DNA of 45,132 nucleotides, from assembly GCA_903834665.1 (NCBI GenBank), contig CAILJY010000070.1, positions 1 to 45,132 of the forward strand, read 5' to 3'. The position numbers were made by a program, and so were the translations under genes. Origin of the DNA: an uncultured bacterium (lineage in GTDB: Bacteria > Patescibacteriota > Minisyncoccia > Phycocordibacterales > UBA9973). The notes under the pieces were generated by a model. That model saw nothing but the letters and a program-made list of their open reading frames with translations. It was not told the DNA's origin and ran no database searches. Shown piece by piece: positions 6,181 to 44,675 of the stretch (position 1 is its first letter; each line of letters begins with the position of its first letter).

Positions 6181-6313
6181 TCAAGAAGAGGACTAGAACC
6201 TTACAGGTTCAGTATACCTTTCATATTTTTGAAAATATTAATTTTCAAAAATGTATTCAAGGTTTTCAAGATCCTCTCCCGCAAGCCAAGTAGTTGGCTT
6301 GCTCTGGGCACCA
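6181..6313 (+). ncRNA. tRNA-Leu-partnered structured element (copy B of the tRNA-end-mimic family)
   Basis: Same module order as the 137-nt repeats at 17679-17952: tRNA-Leu-derived arms, hairpin gaac-CTTACAG-gttc, a long AT hairpin, hairpin gcaagccaa-gtag-ttggcttgc, and an end of tctgggcacca. Strand is assigned by analogy with copy A. Confidence 0.45.
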
Positions 6314-6358
6314 TATAAAAAAACTATCTTAAAGATAGTTTTTTTATATGGTGCCCAG
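6304..6358. terminator. Perfect 27+1+27 palindrome with A7/T7-flanked core (bidirectional terminator) overlapping the tRNA-Leu 3' end
   Basis: ctgggcaccatataaaaaaactatctt-a-aagatagtttttttatatggtgcccag. The right arm, 6349-6358, is the tRNA-Leu acceptor 3' strand plus CCA. Confidence 0.7.
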
Positions 6359-6433
6359 GAGAGGACTTGAACCTCCAAGGATTGCTCCACTAGTTCCTAA
6401 GACTAGCGCGTATACCAATTCCGCCACCTGGGC
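6349..6433 (-). tRNA. tRNA-Leu (anticodon TAG), class II long variable arm, CCA encoded
   Basis: The reverse complement gcccaggtggcggaattggtatacgcgctagtcTTAGgaactagtggagcaatccttggaggttcaagtcctctcctgggcacca folds as a cloverleaf with anticodon loop cuUAGga. Confidence 0.93.
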
Positions 6434-9662: not shown

Positions 9663-10967
9663 ATGTTATTAATAAAGAAAAATATATATTTGGATAATGC
9701 TGGAGCAACTAAAGTAGATAAAGATGTTCGAAAGATCATGGCTTTTTCGGAAAAGATGTTTTTTGCAAACCCGAGTGCTATTTATAAAGACGGAGTAGAA
9801 GTTCGAAATAAGATAGAGGAAGAAAGAACAAAAATAGCCAAACAGATAAATGCTCATAATGATGAGATTATTATAACTTCTAGCGGGACAGAAAGTGATG
9901 CCATGGCAATTTTGGGAACAATTAATAATTATGAATTAAGAATTAAGAATGAAAAGTTAGAATATAAAATTCCACACATTGTAACTTCTAAAATAGAACA
10001 CCCTGCAGTCATGGAAAATTGTCGCTATTTGGAAGATAATGGCAGGGCAGAAGTAACGTATGTTGGAGTTGATAAAAATGGCCTAATTAATTTAGAAGAA
10101 TTAAAAGACTCTTTAAAAGAGAATACAATTCTAGTTTCTATTATGTATGCCAATAATGAGATTGGAACGATTGAACCAATAGAAGAAATTGCAAAAATAA
10201 TACGACATTTTAAGAAAATAAAACAGGGAAAAGAAAATAATTTTTTTGGGTTCTCGGACGAGGGAGGAAGAGGGGCCAGACCCTTCAATAATCATTTTGT
10301 TTTCCCTATTTTTCATACTGATGCGTGTCAGGCTATGAATTATTTATTTACAGAAAATATAGAAAAATTAGGAGTTGATCTGTTGTCTTTTAATAGTTCA
10401 AAAATTTATGGACCAAAAGGAATAGGAATTCTTTATAAAAAACGTAATGTTGATATTTGCCCTTTATATATGGGAGGTGGGCAAGAATTTGGTTTGCATT
10501 CTGGGACAGAAAGTATTTCTCTAATAAAAGGTATATCTCTTGCTTTGGAGATAACAAATAAGATTAAAGAGAAAGAAAATAAAAGACTTACTAAAATTCG
10601 CGATTATGCAATTGATAAATTATTATCTTTATCAGGATTGTATGGATATAAGATAATTCTAAATGGTGGTAGAGAAAATAGATTATCAAACAATGTTAAT
10701 ATTTCAATATCAAATATTTCAAGTGAACTTTTAGTAATTGAATTATCAGCTCAAGGGATTTTTGTTTCAGAGAAAAGTGCTTGTAAAAGTAATGATGATG
10801 GTAAATCTTATGTCATAGATGCAATAAGAAAAGTATGTCCGAGAGATGGGGTTGTTGCAGATGGTTCTTTACGTATTTCATTTGGAAGAGACAATAAGAT
10901 GAGGGATGTGGACGTATTATACAAGGGATTAAGGAAAATTTTAGAGAAATATAAAAACTGGAAATAG
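9663..10967 (+). CDS. Cysteine desulfurase (class V aminotransferase, NifS/IscS-like) carrying an in-frame 81-bp insertion
   Basis: 434 aa. Motifs SSGTESDAMAILG, HTDACQAM and PLP-lysine motif SSKIYGPKGIGILY. The GC-rich insertion encodes ...GKENNFFGFSDEGGRGARPFNNHFVFP... Confidence 0.85.
   Translation: MLLIKKNIYLDNAGATKVDKDVRKIMAFSEKMFFANPSAIYKDGVEVRNKIEEERTKIAKQINAHNDEIIITSSGTESDAMAILGTINNYELRIKNEKLEYKIPHIVTSKIEHPAVMENCRYLEDNGRAEVTYVGVDKNGLINLEELKDSLKENTILVSIMYANNEIGTIEPIEEIAKIIRHFKKIKQGKENNFFGFSDEGGRGARPFNNHFVFPIFHTDACQAMNYLFTENIEKLGVDLLSFNSSKIYGPKGIGILYKKRNVDICPLYMGGGQEFGLHSGTESISLIKGISLALEITNKIKEKENKRLTKIRDYAIDKLLSLSGLYGYKIILNGGRENRLSNNVNISISNISSELLVIELSAQGIFVSEKSACKSNDDGKSYVIDAIRKVCPRDGVVADGSLRISFGRDNKMRDVDVLYKGLRKILEKYKNWK
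10226..10306. repeat. 81-bp GC-rich-core palindromic element inside the cysteine desulfurase CDS
   Basis: Core ggttctcggacgagggaggaagaggggccagacc matches 32/34 positions of the dus copy at 28950-28983. Flanks gggaaaagaaaataatt and aataatcattttgttttccc are inverted repeats. Length is 27 codons. Confidence 0.7.
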
Positions 10968-14393: not shown

Positions 14394-16838
14394 ATGAAAA
14401 AATTAAGTATTTTTTCCGCTATGTTTTTATTGGCGCAGTCTGTATTTGCTTCAGAAGCAAATCTTCGAATCCCCGATCTGCATGCTGCAACTTTTCCTCA
14501 TTTTGGAGGAATAGATGGCTGGCATTTATTACTGTTCGGCTCATTGGTAATTATCGGTACACTTGGTATTAGCTTGTATTTGTTCAAACAAATTAAAGCT
14601 TTGCCCGCCCACAAATCCATGCTTGATGTTGCCAGTACGATTTATAAAACATGTCGTACTTATTTATTGCAACAGGGTAAGTTTTTGGCTATTCTTTTCG
14701 GAATTATTTCCGTGGCAATTATTTATTACTTATCAATGGCAAATGCTGAAGCAACCGGTCCGGATTCTTTATCTACACCGGTAGTTGTAGTTTTAGTTTT
14801 ATTGTTTTCAATTGTTGGTATGGGAGGTTCTTATGCTGTTGCATGGTATGGTATTCGTATTAATACCTATGCAAATGCAAGAACTGCTTTTGCCTCTTTG
14901 AAAAAACGCCCCTGGGATGTGGTAAATATACCATTACGTTCTGGTATTTCTGTGGGATTATTTTTAATTTCATTGGAATTGGTAATGATGATTATCATTT
15001 TACTATTTGTTCCTCGTAACATTGTCGGCTATTGTTTTTTAGGTTTTGCGATTGGTGAATCACTTGGTGCTTCTGTACTTCGTATCGCCGGTGGTATTTT
15101 TACAAAAATTGCAGACATTGGTTCCGACTTGATGAAAATCGTTTTCAAAGTAAAAGAAGATGATCCACGTAACCCCGGAGTTATTGCTGATTGTACAGGT
15201 GACAATGCTGGCGACAGTGTTGGTCCTACTGCTGATGCTTTTGAAACTTATGGGGTAACAGGTGTTGCCCTTATTTCATTTATTTCCTTAGCTGTGACAG
15301 AAATTGACCTGCAGGCGAAATTAATTGTATGGATTTTTGGTATGCGTTTCTTAATGGATATCTTTTCTGGTATCTCTTATTTTGTAAACAATGCAATTTC
15401 GGAAAAAAAATACGGCAAATCATTGGATTTTGATTTTGAAAAACCATTGACCCGTTTAATTTGGATTGCTGCAATATCTTGTATCGCAATTAGTTTTGGA
15501 ATGAGTTATGTACTTATTGGCGATATCACTGTTGGAGGTATCCTCGTCAGTGGTTTATGGTGGAAATTAGCTGGTATTATAAGTTTGGGTACTTTGGCCG
15601 CGGTTCTTATCCCAGAATTCACTAAGAAATTTACGAGCTCAAAATCTGATCACGTACATGAAATCGTTACAGCTTCGCGTGAGGGGGGCCCATCTCTAAC
15701 AATACTTTCTGGTATTGTTGCAGGTAATTTTGCTGCTTATTGGATGGGACTTCTTATGGTTGCTTTGATGGCTGGTGGTTTCTTTATTAGCCAAAATCTA
15801 GGATTGAGTGAAGCTGCTATGGGTTACCAAAGTATCTTTGCATTTGGCTTGGTTGCTTTTGGTTTCCTATGTATGGGTCCTGTTACTATTGCAGTTGATA
15901 ATTATGGGCCTATTACTGATAATGCTCAATCTGTTTTTGAATTATCACAAATTGAACAAATTCCAGGCATTAGTAAAGAGATTGAAAAAGATTTTGGTTT
16001 CACTCCTGATTTTGAGAGAGGGAAACATTATCTGGAAGCAAATGACTCAGCTGGGAATACATTTAAAGCTACTGCAAAACCTGTACTGATTGGCACTGCT
16101 GTCGCTGGTGCAACTACTATGATTTTCTCTATCATTCTTTTATTAAAAAGTGTTGGTATGTTAAGTCTTGAGTTGACACAAGCTCCTATATTGTTAGGTC
16201 TTATCACCGGTGGTGCAATGATTTTCTGGTTCTCTGGTGCATCTATTCAAGCTGTAACAACAGGGGCTTATCGTGCTGTTGAGTATATAAAGAAACATAT
16301 GAAATTGGATAAAACACAGGCTGATGAAAAAGATTCTATTGAAGTAGTAAAAATATGTACACAATATGCCCAAAATGGTATGTGGAATATTTTTATCACA
16401 CTTATGACAGCGACGCTTGCTTTTGCATTATTTGATCCAAATTTCTTTGTAGCTTATCTAATCTCCATTGCAATTTTTGGTTTATTTCAGGCTCTTTATA
16501 TGGCAAATGCCGGTGGTGCTTGGGATAATGCTAAAAAATTAGTGGAAGTCGATTTGAAAGAAAAAAATACTCCGCTTCATGATGCATCCGTGATCGGTGA
16601 TACAGTAGGTGATCCATTTAAGGACACAACTTCAGTTGCCCTAAATCCAATCATAAAGTTTTCTACTTTGTTTGGTTTACTGGCAGTAGAAATTGCAGTC
16701 AATATGTCGAATGTTGGGATCGATGGTATTAAACACTATACTCCAGCACACTTTATTATTGGAGGTATGTTGTTGATTATCTCGATGTATTTTGCTTGGC
16801 GTTCGTTTTATAAAATGCGGATTCCATTGGAAAAGTAA
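14394..16838 (+). CDS. hppA: Membrane-integral proton/sodium-translocating pyrophosphatase
   Basis: 814 aa with about 16 TM segments. Carries the conserved motifs GDNAGD and GDTVGDPFKDT. Confidence 0.92.
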   Translation: MKKLSIFSAMFLLAQSVFASEANLRIPDLHAATFPHFGGIDGWHLLLFGSLVIIGTLGISLYLFKQIKALPAHKSMLDVASTIYKTCRTYLLQQGKFLAILFGIISVAIIYYLSMANAEATGPDSLSTPVVVVLVLLFSIVGMGGSYAVAWYGIRINTYANARTAFASLKKRPWDVVNIPLRSGISVGLFLISLELVMMIIILLFVPRNIVGYCFLGFAIGESLGASVLRIAGGIFTKIADIGSDLMKIVFKVKEDDPRNPGVIADCTGDNAGDSVGPTADAFETYGVTGVALISFISLAVTEIDLQAKLIVWIFGMRFLMDIFSGISYFVNNAISEKKYGKSLDFDFEKPLTRLIWIAAISCIAISFGMSYVLIGDITVGGILVSGLWWKLAGIISLGTLAAVLIPEFTKKFTSSKSDHVHEIVTASREGGPSLTILSGIVAGNFAAYWMGLLMVALMAGGFFISQNLGLSEAAMGYQSIFAFGLVAFGFLCMGPVTIAVDNYGPITDNAQSVFELSQIEQIPGISKEIEKDFGFTPDFERGKHYLEANDSAGNTFKATAKPVLIGTAVAGATTMIFSIILLLKSVGMLSLELTQAPILLGLITGGAMIFWFSGASIQAVTTGAYRAVEYIKKHMKLDKTQADEKDSIEVVKICTQYAQNGMWNIFITLMTATLAFALFDPNFFVAYLISIAIFGLFQALYMANAGGAWDNAKKLVEVDLKEKNTPLHDASVIGDTVGDPFKDTTSVALNPIIKFSTLFGLLAVEIAVNMSNVGIDGIKHYTPAHFIIGGMLLIISMYFAWRSFYKMRIPLEK

Positions 16839-17654: not shown

Positions 17655-17959
17655 AACTGAGTTTTCGAATTCTACACGCGAGACAAGCAGTTTATTTCGT
17701 TGGGTAGGAATTTCGATCCTTACAGGATCAGTACACCTTTTCCATTCGCGAGTACGCTCATATGGAAAAGGTTTTCGAATCCTACACGAAAGCCAATAAA
17801 TTGGCTTTCTCTCGGCGAGACAAGTAGTTTATTTCGTCGGGTAGGAATTTCGATCCTTACAGGATCAGTACACCTTTTCCGTTCGTGATTACACTCACAT
17901 GGAAAAGGTCTTCGAATCCTACACGAAAGCCAATAAATTGGTTTTCTCTCGGCGAGACA
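17655..17959 (+). ncRNA. Tandem array (2.3 x 137 nt) of the tRNA-end-mimic structured element, tRNA-Tyr-specific arms
   Basis: Units 17679-17815 and 17816-17952 differ at 9 of 137 positions. Truncated copies lie at 17661-17678 and 17953-17959. Stem substitutions are compensatory or give G-U pairs only on the plus strand. Confidence 0.6.
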
Positions 17960-18000: not shown

Positions 18001-18002
18001 TG

Positions 18003-18085
18003 TGCGCCGGGTAGGATTCGAACCTACGTAGGCCGAAGCCGTTTGATTTACAGTCAAATGCAATTGACCACTCTGCCACCGACGC
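18003..18085 (-). tRNA. tRNA-Tyr (anticodon GTA), class II variable arm, no encoded CCA
   Basis: Reverse complement gcgtcggtggcagagtggtcaattgcatttgactGTAaatcaaacggcttcggcctacgtaggttcgaatcctacccggcgca. Confidence 0.93.
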
Positions 18086-27191: not shown

Positions 27192-28058
27192 ATGAGAGAT
27201 ATTCCTACATCTCCGCGTGTGATAGAAATAAGGCATAATCGTCGGATCAAACGGTTACGTTTTTTAGCATTTGGGATAGTTCTATTGATAGCTATTATTT
27301 TTGCTCTTTCTTTTTTTTCTGGCAGTAAAGGGATGATGATAAATAAAATAGAAATAACTGGTACCCATATAATAGATCAGAATGATGTTAAAGAAGAAAT
27401 TTATCAAAATATTTTTGGTAGGTATGTTTATCTTTTTGATAAATCTAATGGTTTTATTTATCCTCATGATCAAATATATGATAACTTAATTTTAAAATTT
27501 CCAAGGATTAAGAAACTTTCAGTATATAGAGATGATTTGAAAACATTACATATCGATATAACAGAAAAGATTGGATCATATCTTTATTGTGGAATTGATA
27601 TTCCAATAAATAAAAATGAATTAGGAGAAAATTGTTATTTTATAAATAATGATGGACTTATTTTTGATAAAGCACCTTATTTTTCAGGTAATGTTTATTT
27701 TAAATATTATGTAGAATTAGAAAATGGACGTAAGGAACCATTAGGAGCACAATTATTTAATTCAGAATATTTTTATAAGATGACTAGATTTATCGATGGT
27801 ATTTCTTCTCTAGGATTTAAGCCAATATATATAATAATGAGTAAAGATGGGACCAATTCATTATATTTGGATAGTAAAAATAATGAAAATATTCCAAAAA
27901 TAATTTTTAAAAATGAGGATGATCTTGATATTATAAAAGATAATTTTGATATTGCTATGAAGAAAAAAGAATTTGCCAATGAAGTTAATTCAAAGTATGA
28001 TAAACTTTTATACATAGATCTTCGTTTTAAAAATAAAGTCCTATATAAATTCCAGTAA
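27192..28058 (+). CDS. FtsQ/DivIB-like cell-division protein (TM helix + POTRA-like region)
   Basis: 288 aa. Basic N-terminus, one TM helix, then INKIEITGTHIIDQNDVKEEI, which resembles a POTRA start. Confidence 0.5.
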   Translation: MRDIPTSPRVIEIRHNRRIKRLRFLAFGIVLLIAIIFALSFFSGSKGMMINKIEITGTHIIDQNDVKEEIYQNIFGRYVYLFDKSNGFIYPHDQIYDNLILKFPRIKKLSVYRDDLKTLHIDITEKIGSYLYCGIDIPINKNELGENCYFINNDGLIFDKAPYFSGNVYFKYYVELENGRKEPLGAQLFNSEYFYKMTRFIDGISSLGFKPIYIIMSKDGTNSLYLDSKNNENIPKIIFKNEDDLDIIKDNFDIAMKKKEFANEVNSKYDKLLYIDLRFKNKVLYKFQ

Positions 28059-28066
28059 ATCGTTCC

Positions 28067-28142
28067 GCAGAATTATTAAAATTTTTCCCGTTTTACCCAG
28101 GGTACTGGGCTCCGACACGGATAAAAATTTCAATAATTCTGC
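28067..28142. repeat. 76-nt extended imperfect hairpin element with GC-rich apex (E1)
   Basis: Arms gcagaattattaaaattttt and aaaaatttcaataattctgc. Apex cccag-ggta-ctggg. Shares the 10-mer gacacggata with the element at 42903-42999. Confidence 0.45.
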
Positions 28143-28161
28143 TTCACAGTTTAATTAAAGT

Positions 28162-29262
28162 ATGAAAAATATTTTTGAAAAATTAGAAAAACCATTTTTT
28201 TGTTTAGCCCCAATGGCCGATGTAACCGATGCGGCTTTTAGAAGTATTATTTGTAAATATGGTAAACCAGATATTTTTTGGACAGAATTTGTTTCGGCTG
28301 ATGGTCTTTCTAGCCCTGGAAGAGAAATCTTAAAAGATAATTTGATTTTTAATAAAAAAGAACATCCTATTGTTGTTCAGCTTTTTTCTTCAAATATAGA
28401 TAAAATGCGCGAGGCCTCAAAATATTGTGCATCTCTTGGTTTTGATGGGATTGATATCAATATGGGGTGCCCAGACCGTTCTGTAGAAAAACAAGGTGCT
28501 GGAGCTGCAATGATAAAAGATATGAAAAAAGCAGGGGAAATAATCCAAGCTGTAAAAGATGGAATAAAAGATTTTAAAAAAAAGGGAAAGACAAAAAATA
28601 TTTCTATATCAGTAAAAACTAGGATTGGATACAATAAAAATCAAATCAAGGAATGGATTCCATTTCTATTATCATGTGGCATTGATGCTTTGACTATTCA
28701 TGCTCGTACACGAAAAGAGATGTCTCTCGTCCCAGCCAGATGGGAGCATATTAAAGAAGTTGTTGAAATTAGAAATAAAATGGGAGTTAAAACGAAGATT
28801 ATAGGGAATGGTGATGTTAGGGATTTAAAACATGGGTATGAACTTGCAAAAGAAACAGGTTGTGACGGAGTGATGATTGGGAGAGCGATATTTGGTAATC
28901 CGTGGTTGTTTACTAATAGTAGGAATGGAATTAATTCAAAATTTTCTCAGGTTCTCGGACGAGGGAGGACGAGGAGCCAGACCAGTTCAAAAATTTTAAT
29001 TAATTCCACTCCTACATTAAAAGAAAAATTAAAAGTTATGTTAGAGCATACAAAATTATTTGAAAAAATACTTGGTAAACATAGGAATTTTGCTATTATG
29101 AAAAAACATTTTAAAGCTTATGTTAATGGTTTTCCTGCCCGCCCTCACGATAGTTCGGGAGCAGGCGGGATTGGAACTAAAGAATTACGCGTAAAACTTA
29201 TGGAAACAAAAAATGCGAAAGAAGTAGAGAAAATAGTTTCTAATTTTCTCAAAAATCATTAA
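28162..29262 (+). CDS. dus: tRNA-dihydrouridine synthase with two GC-rich in-frame insertions
   Basis: 366 aa. FMN-binding TIM-barrel motifs (LAPMADVTDAAFR, GCDGVMIGRAIFGNPWLF). Confidence 0.88.
   Translation: MKNIFEKLEKPFFCLAPMADVTDAAFRSIICKYGKPDIFWTEFVSADGLSSPGREILKDNLIFNKKEHPIVVQLFSSNIDKMREASKYCASLGFDGIDINMGCPDRSVEKQGAGAAMIKDMKKAGEIIQAVKDGIKDFKKKGKTKNISISVKTRIGYNKNQIKEWIPFLLSCGIDALTIHARTRKEMSLVPARWEHIKEVVEIRNKMGVKTKIIGNGDVRDLKHGYELAKETGCDGVMIGRAIFGNPWLFTNSRNGINSKFSQVLGRGRTRSQTSSKILINSTPTLKEKLKVMLEHTKLFEKILGKHRNFAIMKKHFKAYVNGFPARPHDSSGAGGIGTKELRVKLMETKNAKEVEKIVSNFLKNH
28927..29007. repeat. 81-bp GC-rich-core palindromic element inside the dus CDS
   Basis: ggaattaattcaaaatttt ... aaaattttaattaattcc are inverted arms with one indel. 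The core matches the copy at 10226-10306. It is translated as GINSKFSQVLGRGRTRSQTSSKILINS, a different frame from the other copy. Confidence 0.7.
29134..29172. repeat. 39-nt GC-rich hairpin-forming in-frame insertion in dus
   Basis: cctgcccgccctcacgatagttcgggagcaggcgggatt (26/39 G+C) with cccgcc/ggcggg pairing. It encodes PARPHDSSGAGGI between GF and GTKELR. Confidence 0.5.
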
Positions 29263-32779: not shown

Positions 32780-33065
32780 CAAAATTAAGAGAAACGCAAT
32801 TTTGCGTGGGGAAGAAAATGCGATTACGCATTTTCGCCAGGGATTCGGAGACCCTGAGTATATCGCACGGAGCTTTAGCGAGTACGATACGAAGGGTGTA
32901 CAGAATCTGTAAGATTCGAAAAGTGTAATCACGGTCCCTGTCAGGGATTCGAAAGACTTTTCCTTGCCGAAGGCGGAAAAGTACCCGCGACCGTAGGGCG
33001 AGAAATTCCCTGTCCCAATCTGTAAGATTCGAAAAGTGTACTCACGGTCCATGTCCCAATTTGTA
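32780..33065 (-). ncRNA. One full, one rearranged and one partial copy of the tRNA-end-mimic element with tRNA-Gln-specific arms
   Basis: Read on the minus strand, the module order equals that of the tRNA-Tyr copies. 32904-32942 and 33017-33055 match at 37/39 positions. Hairpin gaaaatgcg-atta-cgcattttc lies at 32814-32835. Confidence 0.5.
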
Positions 33066-34472: not shown

Positions 34473-35576
34473 TTAATTTTCTTCTTGCGGTTTTTCAATA
34501 GTGATAGTTTCAATTCCGACTGCTTCGCCGGTTATTCTCATTACGTCTTTGTCTATTTTCTTGAATTCACTACTAGAATTATCGTAATGGTTTATAACAG
34601 TTTTCAATGAATTTCCGATTTTTAGATGATATTCATTATATGATTTTAAATGTTTAGATAAGTCTTCAACTTTTTTTATGATTTCTTTTGCGGATTTCTC
34701 AATTTTAAATGCTTTGAATCCATAAACTACAGATTGTAGATATGCCATAAAAGTAGTAGGCGACACGATGATAACTTTTTTGTCGTTATAAGCATAGTCA
34801 ATAAGATTTCTAGTATTTACTTTTATTGAACCAACTTCATTTACCAATAAATCATAGTAAATTGCTTCAGCTGGAATGTACATAAAAGCAAAAGGTAAAG
34901 TTCCTTCTTCTATTTTAATATATTTTGCTGTTTCGTCTATTCTTTTTTTGAGATCATTTTTGAATTCTTTTTCGAGCTCTTCTCTTTGTTTGTCATCAAT
35001 TGCGTGCACTACTCTATCGTAATTGTCCAAAGAAAATTTTGCATCAATTGGTATTATACCTTCTTTTACTTTTATTATTGCATCAACTTTATCTTTATTT
35101 TTAAATTCATATTGCATTTCATATTGTCCAGGGGCAAGTGTGTTAGATAATATTAATTCTAAAGATGCTTCCCCCCAATTACCACGCTGTTTCTGGTGTT
35201 TAAGAGTTTTTTCTAAACTGCCAAGTTGTTCAGCTATTGTAACAAACTGCCTAGTTGCTTCATTTGTTTTTGTTTGTTCTCTCGCAACATCAATGAGACT
35301 TTTACTCATTTGTTCATTAATATCTTTTAGTAATTTTTGAGATTCCGAGAATTGATTATAAACAGCTTCCCTAGTTTCTTTTTGAGATTCACCCAGTTTA
35401 TTATCAATTATTCCAATTTTTGTATCTATATTTCTAGATAGATCATTCATTTGTTGGAATAATAATTGTATTGAATTATCTGCTTTTTCTTCGGGTTTCT
35501 TTTTAAAAATAAGAATAATCCCCGTGATTAATCCGACTAAAATGAGAATAAGAAGAATTATAATTAGTGTTTCCAT
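34473..35576 (-). CDS. rmuC: DNA recombination protein RmuC
   Basis: 367 aa with an N-terminal TM helix, a coiled coil, and an RmuC nuclease-like C-terminal domain. Confidence 0.85.
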   Translation of the reverse strand: METLIIILLILILVGLITGIILIFKKKPEEKADNSIQLLFQQMNDLSRNIDTKIGIIDNKLGESQKETREAVYNQFSESQKLLKDINEQMSKSLIDVAREQTKTNEATRQFVTIAEQLGSLEKTLKHQKQRGNWGEASLELILSNTLAPGQYEMQYEFKNKDKVDAIIKVKEGIIPIDAKFSLDNYDRVVHAIDDKQREELEKEFKNDLKKRIDETAKYIKIEEGTLPFAFMYIPAEAIYYDLLVNEVGSIKVNTRNLIDYAYNDKKVIIVSPTTFMAYLQSVVYGFKAFKIEKSAKEIIKKVEDLSKHLKSYNEYHLKIGNSLKTVINHYDNSSSEFKKIDKDVMRITGEAVGIETITIEKPQEEN

Positions 35577-37414: not shown

Positions 37415-38143
37415 TTATATCAATTTCCCCAAATAATGTTTTAAAGTGTAAATCCAATCTTCTTCATTTTCTGGATTGTTTTGTTCTTTTTGGTTGAGCA
37501 TCCATTCTAAATATCCACGGTCAATTTGAGCAACTTCTTCAACAGTTTTACCTGTATATTTTCCAAAGTTGAACATATTCATTAGAGAAGGACGGCTAGA
37601 AATTTCAATCATCTTTTCTATGGCTTCTTCTTCATTTATATTTTCTTCATCCATTATTTTCTTTAATAATCTCTCGTATAATTTTTCAAGAACAAGAACA
37701 TCCCCAAGTGCATCATGAGCAGAAGCTTCAATATCGATATCAAGATAATATCTTAAATATTGTAAACGATATTGTGGAATAATATTATTTTTATCAAGGG
37801 CTCGTGCAACACGAAGAGTACAAATAGTATTGGTTGGTTTTATTCCTTCATTTTTAATTATTTCAAAATCAAATTTATTATTGTGAGCTACCATTACTGA
37901 ATTTGGATCTTCAAGCATTGTTTTTATTTTTTGATATTCAGGGCTTTCTTTGAAAGTATTTTTATTGGTGACCATTTTATTTGTTATATGAGTTATCGCA
38001 CTAGCTTCAGGGGGAATAGGGATAGATGGTTTGTATAATTCACAAAAAGTCTCACCATCTGTTTTATAAGCTAATTGACAAAGAAAATCTTTTTTGGGTT
38101 CATTCCCAGTTGTTTCAGTATCTAAAAATATAATTTGTTTCAT
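37415..38143 (-). CDS. DEDDh 3'-5' exonuclease (DnaQ-like) with a DUF3820-like C-terminal domain
   Basis: 242 aa. Exo motifs FLDTETTG, HNNKFDFEII and HDALGDV. The C-terminal FGKYTGKTVEEVAQIDRGYLEWML resembles DUF3820. Confidence 0.8.
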   Translation of the reverse strand: MKQIIFLDTETTGNEPKKDFLCQLAYKTDGETFCELYKPSIPIPPEASAITHITNKMVTNKNTFKESPEYQKIKTMLEDPNSVMVAHNNKFDFEIIKNEGIKPTNTICTLRVARALDKNNIIPQYRLQYLRYYLDIDIEASAHDALGDVLVLEKLYERLLKKIMDEENINEEEAIEKMIEISSRPSLMNMFNFGKYTGKTVEEVAQIDRGYLEWMLNQKEQNNPENEEDWIYTLKHYLGKLI

Positions 38144-44354: not shown

Positions 44355-44675
44355 ATGAATGAAAAATTAGATAATTTTGGACTTAAGCCAGTTAATGAAC
44401 CAATTGATGAATCAATAATAGAAGTTCCTTCTTTTGAAGAGTTAGAGATTTTAAAAGAAACTGATTTTGATGAATATATTAAATGGATAGATTATATTGC
44501 AAAAACAAAAGAGGAAGAACATATAAAAGAATTAGTAGAACAAGAAAGAATAGAGAAATTAAATAAAGATAATAAAGATAATAAAGATAATAAAGATAAT
44601 AAAGAAAATGAACCAACTGGTTTTAAAGAGGATAGAGAGGATAGAAAAAAAAGAAATATGTATGGACAAAATTAA
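44355..44675 (+). CDS. Hypothetical acidic protein with (NKD)n repeat
   Basis: 106 aa. A 9-nt tandem repeat (aaagataat, about 4.5 copies) at 44565-44606 encodes NKDNKDNKDNKDNKEN. Confidence 0.45.
   Translation: MNEKLDNFGLKPVNEPIDESIIEVPSFEELEILKETDFDEYIKWIDYIAKTKEEEHIKELVEQERIEKLNKDNKDNKDNKDNKENEPTGFKEDREDRKKRNMYGQN

Follow-up and report, generated by a model that had tools for sequence, protein, structure and literature searches.

The closest described counterparts of the repeat reported here are the Rickettsia palindromic elements (RPEs). As summarized in PMC10969869 from the work of Ogata et al. (2000, 2002), there are ten families of RPEs, with lengths of about 100-150 bp and with one conserved peptide per family, read in a single frame; they lie in-frame in unrelated housekeeping genes as well as in noncoding DNA of a reduced, AT-rich genome, the added peptide is one that the protein fold can accommodate, and no transposase is known for them. 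We analyzed a 45,132-nt contig of an uncultured patescibacterium (GenBank assembly GCA_903834665.1, CAILJY010000070.1; referred to here in its entirety as the window), in which two copies of a hairpin-forming unit lie in-frame in the genes for a cysteine desulfurase and a tRNA-dihydrouridine synthase (Dus). Bacteria of this group, the Patescibacteria or candidate phyla radiation (CPR), have tiny streamlined genomes that are thought to be poor in mobile DNA. The original prediction, made by a model from the sequence alone, described the desulfurase copy and proposed an element analogous to RPEs; the observation is confirmed and the interpretation supported. With a probability of roughly 0.7, the unit is a small non-autonomous hairpin-forming repeat element of Paceibacterota (CPR) that behaves like RPEs.

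Several other kinds of small palindrome are relevant. In the REP/REPIN system (RAYT, Y1 HUH), the repetitive extragenic palindromes (REPs) are 20-40 nt long, GC-rich throughout, extragenic by definition, and marked by a 5' GTAG. For REP/RAYT and IS200/IS605-derived palindromes, a DNA hairpin is recognized rather than terminal repeats, and no target duplication is made. MITEs, or miniature inverted-repeat transposable elements (Correia/CREE, ERIC, BOX, RUP, and others), are <300 bp, noncoding, hairpin-forming, multicopy, and sometimes intragenic in-frame; they are defined by terminal inverted repeats that are conserved between copies and match a parent insertion sequence (IS), plus target-site duplications (PMC10969869). 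The GC clusters of yeast mitochondria (e.g., GC42) are present or absent between close relatives, have substitution rates below synonymous, and undergo merging and shuffling, with the enzyme not known (PMC4478555).

Two hairpin units inserted in housekeeping genes

The host genes and the parts of the two units are listed here by window position.

9663-10967, plus strand: host gene 1, class-V aminotransferase/cysteine desulfurase (NifS/IscS-like), 434 aa (Pfam PF00266, E = 2e-52; PDB IscS/NifS matches to 8e-63)
10223-10309, plus strand: element copy 1, whole unit, in-frame in the cysteine desulfurase gene (covariance model R1, 81.5 bits, E = 1.3e-17)
10226-10242, plus strand: left AT-rich arm of copy 1, gggaaaagaaaataatt, pairing with 10290-10306 in the family-wide register (position -k with +(k+1), counted from the core edges)
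10249-10282, plus strand: core of copy 1, 34 nt, GC- and purine-rich, with ends GGTTCT...AGACC forming inverted repeats and an internal 6-bp stem, GTYCTC/GAGGAC
10287-10306, plus strand: right AT-rich arm of copy 1, aataatcattttgttttccc
28162-29262, plus strand: host gene 2, Dus, 366 aa (Pfam PF01207, E = 1e-59; PDB 1vhn, 7.7e-32)
28924-29010, plus strand: element copy 2, whole unit, in-frame in dus, in the linker after the TIM-barrel motif GNPWLF (covariance model R1, 90.2 bits, E = 6e-20)
28919-28945, plus strand: left arm of copy 2, the palindrome reaching outward to GTAGGA
28950-28983, plus strand: core of copy 2, read in a different frame from that of copy 1
28989-29015, plus strand: right arm of copy 2

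The window has 31% G+C overall, against 23/34 in the copy 1 core, GGTTCTCGGACGAGGGAGGAAGAGGGGCCAGACC, which differs from the copy 2 core at 2 positions (32/34 identical); the two core counts are as first described. None of 100 dinucleotide-preserving shuffles contained any core match with ≤3 mismatches, and the resemblance between the two genes therefore exceeds chance expectation. The arms of copy 1 pair at 15/17 positions; those of copy 2 are 27 nt long, 89% complementary, and unlike the copy 1 arms in sequence, again in line with the prediction. Copy 2 folds with -35.9 kcal/mol (z = -6.5), and the z-score for copy 1 is -1.8 on the plus strand and -3.7 on the minus strand.

The desulfurase open reading frame (ORF) translates across copy 1 as ...IIRHFKKIKQGKENNFFGFSDEGGRGARPFNNHFVFPIFHTDACQAM..., and the core is read as GFSDEGGRGARP there and as VLGRGRTRSQTS in dus; an example of a predicted peptide encoded at the insert is ENNFFGFSDEGGR. 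The 27 in-frame codons that had been proposed exist, but they span 10227-10307, one base off the range 10226-10306. Likewise, the two genes do read the core in different frames, but the codon phases need a minor correction: by our count, its first base falls on the second position of a codon in the desulfurase gene and on the third in dus. The claim that all three forward frames of the copy 1 core are open holds and extends to the three reverse frames, and where the cores of a few relatives carry a single stop in one forward frame, it is never the frame used.

Both copies are insertions relative to the ancestral genes. Solved IscS/NifS structures align to residues 5-181 and 216-431 of the window desulfurase and have 6 residues where it has 34, which agrees with the statement in the original prediction that NifS/IscS proteins have only a short loop there. 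We aligned 53 Paceibacterota orthologues and scanned 80 further CPR loci. The minimal, widespread state is a spacing of 35 residues from NNEIG to HTDA, against 58 in the window protein; relative to this ancestral spacing copy 1 adds ~23 residues, and the two copies add ~23-30. The insert NxFF[GR]SSDEGGRGARPFKNxFV is common to one clade of orthologues at 66-76% identity, the other orthologues being without it, and the insert peptide is restricted to one Paceibacterota clade, whose orthologues span 66-87% identity. No native counterpart turned up outside it: the peptide is absent from the solved structures, from many CPR orthologues with the 35-residue spacing, and from P0002, the nearest relative (locus L094, ~85% identity). 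In L094 the core is gone, the left arm is kept, and 54 nt are missing in-frame, which marks it as a deletion derivative. The same desulfurase is present on contigs of independent assemblies, so an assembly artifact is excluded.

In Dus, many orthologues without the insert read FGNPWLFSGKIPSMKEKLKV and others have INSKFSQVLGRGRTRGQTSSKILINSTP; one dus variant carries an internal frameshift that is compensated inside the element (LGRGGREPVPDHSK). In the protein, this insert comes after the final motif of the barrel and occupies the linker that leads to the helical domain, where PDB alignments of Dus stop. For the desulfurase, a surface-loop position was examined in an AlphaFold2 model run on the 53-sequence alignment, a poor model overall (mean pLDDT, predicted local distance difference test, of 65) that was used for this statement only: residues 190-213 are low-confidence coil (pLDDT <50) between a helix and the strand leading to the HTDACQ motif, as would suit a loop.

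A repeat family at eight kinds of site

A search with nhmmer and the covariance model over ~1.47 Mb of related DNA (in which L-labels denote loci and P-labels proteins) identified 18 distinct copies at 8 kinds of site, 5 of them in-frame in coding sequence and 3 intergenic. Further copies, on which the original prediction depended, thus exist in MnmA, in LigA, at a second desulfurase site, and in three spacers.

Coding, in-frame, desulfurase site 1: window, L005, L087, L089, L091, L093
Coding, in-frame, Dus linker: window, L095, L097, L098
Coding, in-frame, MnmA, exactly between two Pfam domains: L003
Coding, in-frame, zinc-finger loop of NAD-dependent ligase (LigA): L002
Coding, in-frame, second desulfurase site in a distant Patescibacterium: L028
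Intergenic, infB>rbfA spacer: L008 (sense), L091 (sense), L087 (antisense)
Intergenic, DUF4446>infB spacer: L092
Intergenic, spacer upstream of mnmA: L003

At all five coding sites the insert is a multiple of three and stop-free in the host frame, and the three frames are all used, with core peptides SSDEGGRGARP, VLGRGRTRSQT, and GSRTREDEGPD. The sense strand is the purine-rich strand at every one of these sites. Stop codons were considered as the cause of this orientation and rejected, with 20/51 sense and 19/51 antisense frames open. Three intergenic copies, those of L008 and L092 among them, terminate 20-25 nt upstream of the infB or rbfA start codon. The infB spacers of the window itself are only 10 and 29 nt long and so count as empty. 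The L028 copy (10207-10299) is a variant with the same core ends (GGTCCTCGGA...GGCCAGACC), a 23-bp perfect stem, and a pyrimidine-rich center, as if the middle of the core were inverted.

Movement is indicated by L008 and L092, which carry identical arms (acaaattatattcYgaaaaaa...) and an identical core in different spacers, upstream of rbfA and infB, respectively; the L087 unit in the infB>rbfA spacer has the opposite orientation. Since the same arms accompany the same core at two loci, the arms travel with the core and the whole unit moves. This rules out, for the family, that the arms are made anew from local flanks at each insertion, and the suggestion of a locally generated inverted duplication was not borne out.

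The same sites have been used repeatedly. A second unit in L092 has identical arms around a shorter, different center, and in P0026/P0027 a type-B core is followed by a type-A right arm. In other relatives the same spacers are filled by other hairpin families with their own cores. The desulfurase site holds other inserts in other lineages, including "type B" and "type C," and in five orthologues with DNA (L092, L007, L009, L015, L035) the insert is an unrelated hairpin of up to 24 perfect bp; at the Dus site, at least 4 other insert types occur, known as protein sequence only. Given this recurrence of unrelated inserts, the desulfurase and Dus sites must be unusually permissive or else preferred as targets.

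A second hairpin-repeat family, with ~30-bp AT-rich arms and the core GAGTAGGTGTGGGCGYGCCGGAGCAAA...TTTGCGKAGAGGGATAA, was found in L008 (9357-9483), L091 (9021-9170), L005 (7526-7592), and L009 (7455-7484). In L008 and L091 it lies in the DUF4446>infB spacer, with the orientation reversed between the two.

Free arms, a conserved core, and known elements

The unit measures ~83-87 nt, and copies anchored on the core align without gaps over 87 columns (the 34-nt core with 26 nt of flank on its left and 27 nt on its right). Core positions 5-10, 12-16, and 27-33 are invariant, and variation falls mainly at 17-22. The core ends, GGTCYT/AGACC, are inverted repeats, and GTCCTC/GAGGAC could form an internal stem, for which a test on 13 copies detected no covariation. 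A T-run abuts the core on the left and an A-run on the right, and beyond them extend AT-rich arms of 20-27 bp. Arm sequences are wholly different between sites, but the pairing register, position -k with +(k+1), is constant. Over the arms and core stem, 84% of cells hold a standard pair among 13 copies and 85.6% among the 6 orthologous desulfurase copies; sliding the partner by 1-3 columns lowers these values to 47-56% and 51-61%, respectively. Arm pairs have changed on both sides at 21/23 positions in the 13 copies and at 11/23 in the 6 orthologous ones, and in neither set did any of 500 shuffles reach the observed covariation score.

Among 299 arm cells there is a single G·U pair, and the stems of L005, L091, and L093 run to 25-27 bp with zero or very few mismatches. 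In a general scan of coding-sequence hairpins, weak 14- to 15-bp hairpins were about as frequent as in shuffled sequence, and only the long-armed family stood out. An RNA helix under selection would be expected to accept G·U pairs as well as isolated mismatches. From the near-absence of G·U in long perfect stems we infer a palindrome-keeping process that acts at the level of DNA; the hairpin is thus probably a DNA palindrome rather than an RNA structure under selection. That the arms remain self-complementary while differing between copies was correctly foreseen; if the accompanying idea of selection for a hairpin is taken to mean an RNA structure, it does not fit pairing that is almost purely Watson-Crick.

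The core is conserved to an unusual degree. Among the six orthologous desulfurase copies, mean pairwise DNA identity is 0.87 for the core, 0.70 and 0.68 for the arms (range 62-79%), 0.74-0.78 for highly conserved flanking coding DNA, and 0.55 for the third codon positions of the latter. Core pairs within a genome match at 32/34 (window), 31/34 (L087), and 34/34 (L091) positions and are at least as alike as orthologous copies, which average 29.6/34. Both window copies have a T4 variant that is found in no other desulfurase or dus orthologue, and the L091 pair shares T11. Peptide selection cannot explain the core, because it is read in three frames and is present in spacers. Taken together, the base-level patterns point to homogenization within the genome, recent recopying, or selection at the nucleotide level.

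The analogy with RPEs holds for behavior: the unit is multicopy, palindromic, and stop-free in-frame at five coding sites, and it also occupies three spacer sites. Like RPE peptides, the inserts fall at positions that the fold tolerates: a gap in PDB alignments, a coil with pLDDT <50 (in a poor model), and the Dus and MnmA linkers. The element differs from RPEs in its length of 83-87 nt and its host from another phylum, Paceibacterota, in a core read in three frames where each RPE family has a single conserved peptide, and in that only the central 34 nt are conserved, the arms being free in sequence and strictly complementary; on these described features it is RPE-like without being a member of that family.

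With MITEs the element shares a length of <300 bp, hairpin formation, multiple copies, and occasional in-frame intragenic insertion. It falls outside the MITE definition in that its terminal arms are its least conserved part, only the short GGTCYT/AGACC core ends being common to copies, and no parent IS or transposase was seen within the 45 kb and flanks of ≤21 kb. In its strictly Watson-Crick palindromes it resembles REP/RAYT and IS200/IS605-derived elements, which offer the nearest mechanistic model for mobilizing a motif on a stem; it differs from REPs in its intragenic copies, its AT-rich arms, and the lack of a consistent GTAG, and no RAYT/TnpA gene was seen in the DNA examined. Like the yeast GC clusters, it consists of GC-rich hairpins scattered in an AT-rich genome and is constrained in substitution. 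In GC42, however, stems are conserved and loops vary, the reverse of the pattern here, and GC42 is mitochondrial, mostly intergenic, and has an AG target dinucleotide (PMC4478555).

Database searches returned little. Rfam 15 gave no covariance-model match at gathering score, only far sub-threshold generic hairpins even at permissive thresholds; blastn found no match in phage and plasmid collections, and the majority variant TCCTCGGAYGAGGGAGGA had 0 matches in viral contigs. The 20-mer GGTTCTCGGACGAGGGAGGA had 0 exact matches in GTDB species genomes and at least 3 in JGI metagenomes, one of which (L001) is a chance GC-rich match; these two scans missed the majority variant because most relatives have GGTCCTC. 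When a synthetic frame-3 plus antisense query was compared with 5.8 billion proteins, 16 candidates shared words with it but did not reach E ≤ 10, and no host-range information was obtained, and the 30-aa element peptide matched only a spurious proline-rich repeat protein (P0241) among 1.84 billion protein representatives. Nor did full-text literature searches find palindromic elements in Parcubacteria or CPR. The literature result is weak evidence that the family is undescribed.

The window contains further hairpins and repeats. A second, unrelated GC-rich hairpin (CCTGCCCGCCCTC...GGGAGCAGGCGGG) lies in-frame in the same dus gene at 29128-29178 and codes for PARPHDSSGAGGI at a point that is a lone Asp in most orthologues; P0127 alone has the same insert, other Dus orthologues have a 6-residue PACAGR/PAYAGR insert at this point, and no other copy was found in the related loci searched. 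Just upstream of dus, an intergenic hairpin at 28056-28153 (31-nt AT-rich arms, 81% complementary; 36-nt GC-rich center, CCCGTTTTACCCAGGGTACTGGGCTCCGACACGGAT) has an architecture like that of the main element and a different core, again with no other copy in the related DNA searched. At 6273-6358 there is a perfect 27-bp palindrome with a 1-nt loop (6304-6330/6332-6358), the right arm of which is the 3' end, including CCA, of a tRNA-Leu gene (6349-6433, minus strand). Upstream of it, part of the tRNA 3' end recurs in inverted form as CCTCTCC...CTGGGCACCA, with a 9-bp hairpin interrupting the copy; the whole has the appearance of a tRNA end duplicated in inverted orientation. At 17678-17951, next to tRNA-Tyr (18002-18085), are two tandem units of 137 nt that are 93% identical; each has a T-arm-like GGTTTTCGAATCCT and internal inverted repeats, and neither matches Rfam. 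A GC-rich, apparently structured noncoding stretch after tRNA-Gln (32827-33055) contains a 39-nt direct repeat (32904-32942/33017-33055, 95% identical) and has no Rfam match at permissive thresholds. Other GC-rich islands (15660, 22420, 43071, and others) have no repeats in the related DNA searched and resemble ordinary coding sequence.

Competing explanations and significance

In the reading we favor, the unit would have spread to spacers and to those sites in housekeeping genes that tolerate ~27 extra residues, namely surface loops, interdomain linkers, and a zinc-finger loop. The copies in the desulfurase and dus genes would be old: orthologues would have inherited them, their translation would give a disordered loop, and in-frame deletion would remove them now and then. 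Movement would require a trans-acting enzyme able to recognize the conserved core when it sits on a DNA hairpin. The arms may be kept as perfect Watson-Crick palindromes by a DNA-level process such as intrastrand template switching or gene conversion from one arm to the other, and gene conversion or recopying among the copies of a genome, or nucleotide-level selection, could account for the uniformity of the core.

Several observations weigh against this reading. No target-site duplication could be defined, no direct repeat being evident at the arm ends in material that lacks a closely related filled/empty pair. The 45-kb window and its flanks (≤21 kb) contain no transposase or other candidate mobilizing gene; besides housekeeping genes, the window ORFs comprise RmuC, an ExoX-like exonuclease, and a PD-(D/E)XK fragment (44355-44672) with a match below threshold. 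Most coding copies are vertically inherited, and the direct evidence of recent transposition consists of a few intergenic copies. The count of 18 copies covers ~1.47 Mb only, and the public-genome scans used the minority GGTTCTC variant. Finally, a selfish insertion in decay would not be expected to keep its core better conserved than essential coding DNA, which leaves room for a host function. A purely passive "junk" element fails to explain conservation beyond that of neighboring coding DNA.

Further genes were noted in the window and related loci. The PD-(D/E)XK fragment is an ORF of 106 aa (44355-44675) immediately upstream of the 16S rRNA gene; its match to PF12784 (PD-(D/E)XK nuclease family transposases) is weak and stays below threshold (E = 6e-4; 20 bits, cutoff 27.4). 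The RmuC-family gene lies at 34473-35576 and the gene for the ExoX-like 3'-5' exonuclease at 37415-38143. RmuC has been linked to limiting inversions at short inverted repeats, and both genes may bear on the handling of a palindrome-rich genome. L087 (12605-13966; also L088, 6034-7395) has a pair resembling a diversity-generating retroelement, bAvd accessory protein and RVT_1 reverse transcriptase, between the desulfurase neighbor and clpB; the window is without it. L092 carries, in the interval from clpB to parB, a free-standing gene (14772-15590) that resembles a LAGLIDADG_3 homing endonuclease.

Two other readings are unlikely. In the first, the 34-nt core alone would be the true mobile or homing unit, recognized on the tip of a DNA hairpin; it would invade, replace, or convert the tips of existing palindromes, and the arms would be rebuilt by template switching. 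This would explain why different inserts recur at the same loop or linker, several at the desulfurase site being unrelated hairpins, and why identical arms occur with different cores (the two L092 spacer copies; P0026/P0027). It would also explain the seemingly inverted core center in L028 and the likeness of copies within a genome.

The second, to which we give about the same low credence, is that the unit is a structured motif useful to the host, its purine-rich core with GGAGG-like runs on a long stem serving as a protein-binding or ribosome-pausing signal at domain boundaries and upstream of starts, and mobility being only its route of arrival. The identity values speak for it, with the core above adjacent coding DNA and far above third positions, as do the sense orientation of the purine strand at all five coding sites, for which stop codons are no explanation, the placing of the Dus and MnmA inserts exactly at domain linkers, and the 20-25 nt that separate three intergenic copies from infB or rbfA starts. 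Yet orthologues do well without the element, the nearest relative has deleted it, and the same sites elsewhere hold unrelated inserts, among them the five desulfurase orthologues whose DNA forms hairpins with quite different cores. Moreover, the L087 spacer copy is antisense, the Watson-Crick-only arms speak against RNA structure under selection, and no Rfam family matches.

It is less probable still that the unit is an intervening sequence removed from the transcript, by RNase III or a splicing endonuclease, and never translated. Perfect stems of 20-27 bp are potential RNase III substrates, and CPR rRNA genes carry insertions that are absent from mature rRNA. On the other hand, bacterial RNase III cutting does not religate mRNA. 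At each of the five independent coding sites the insert has a length divisible by three and lacks stops in the host frame, with all three frames in use, the dus frameshift is compensated within the element, and the loss in L094 is in-frame as well; such preservation of frame is what selection on translated sequence predicts and makes excision from mRNA unlikely.

That the insert is a native loop expansion grown in place by inverted duplication (template switching), with its likeness to dus due to chance or convergence, is refuted for the core, whose identity of 88-100% across 8 unrelated kinds of site and several genomes cannot be the product of convergence and which recurs with identical arms in two different spacers; this least credible proposal survives only as a process that keeps or perfects the arms, in keeping with native flanks that are A-rich and then T-rich (Lys and then Phe codons) and form weak hairpins even when uninserted (e.g., GGAAATC...GATTTCC in L008), and with the 27-bp perfect palindrome copying a tRNA 3' end, which shows that inverted duplication occurs in this genome.

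As elements that enlarge and diversify protein loops, these repeats are relevant to annotation, to CPR marker alignments and phylogenies, and to structure prediction, and the core sequence is usable as a metagenome marker for these lineages. Their architecture, with a conserved center, free Watson-Crick arms, and signs of homogenization within a genome, may reveal a mechanism by which DNA hairpins are maintained or mobilized in organisms with minimal repair. If true, transposition or conversion targeted to hairpin tips would be a mode not described for bacterial repeats. The presence of hairpin repeats inside essential genes, for the sulfur donor of Fe-S and thio-cofactors, for tRNA modification, and for DNA ligase, would mean that Rickettsia-style "selfish DNA in proteins" arose independently in a second reduced lineage.

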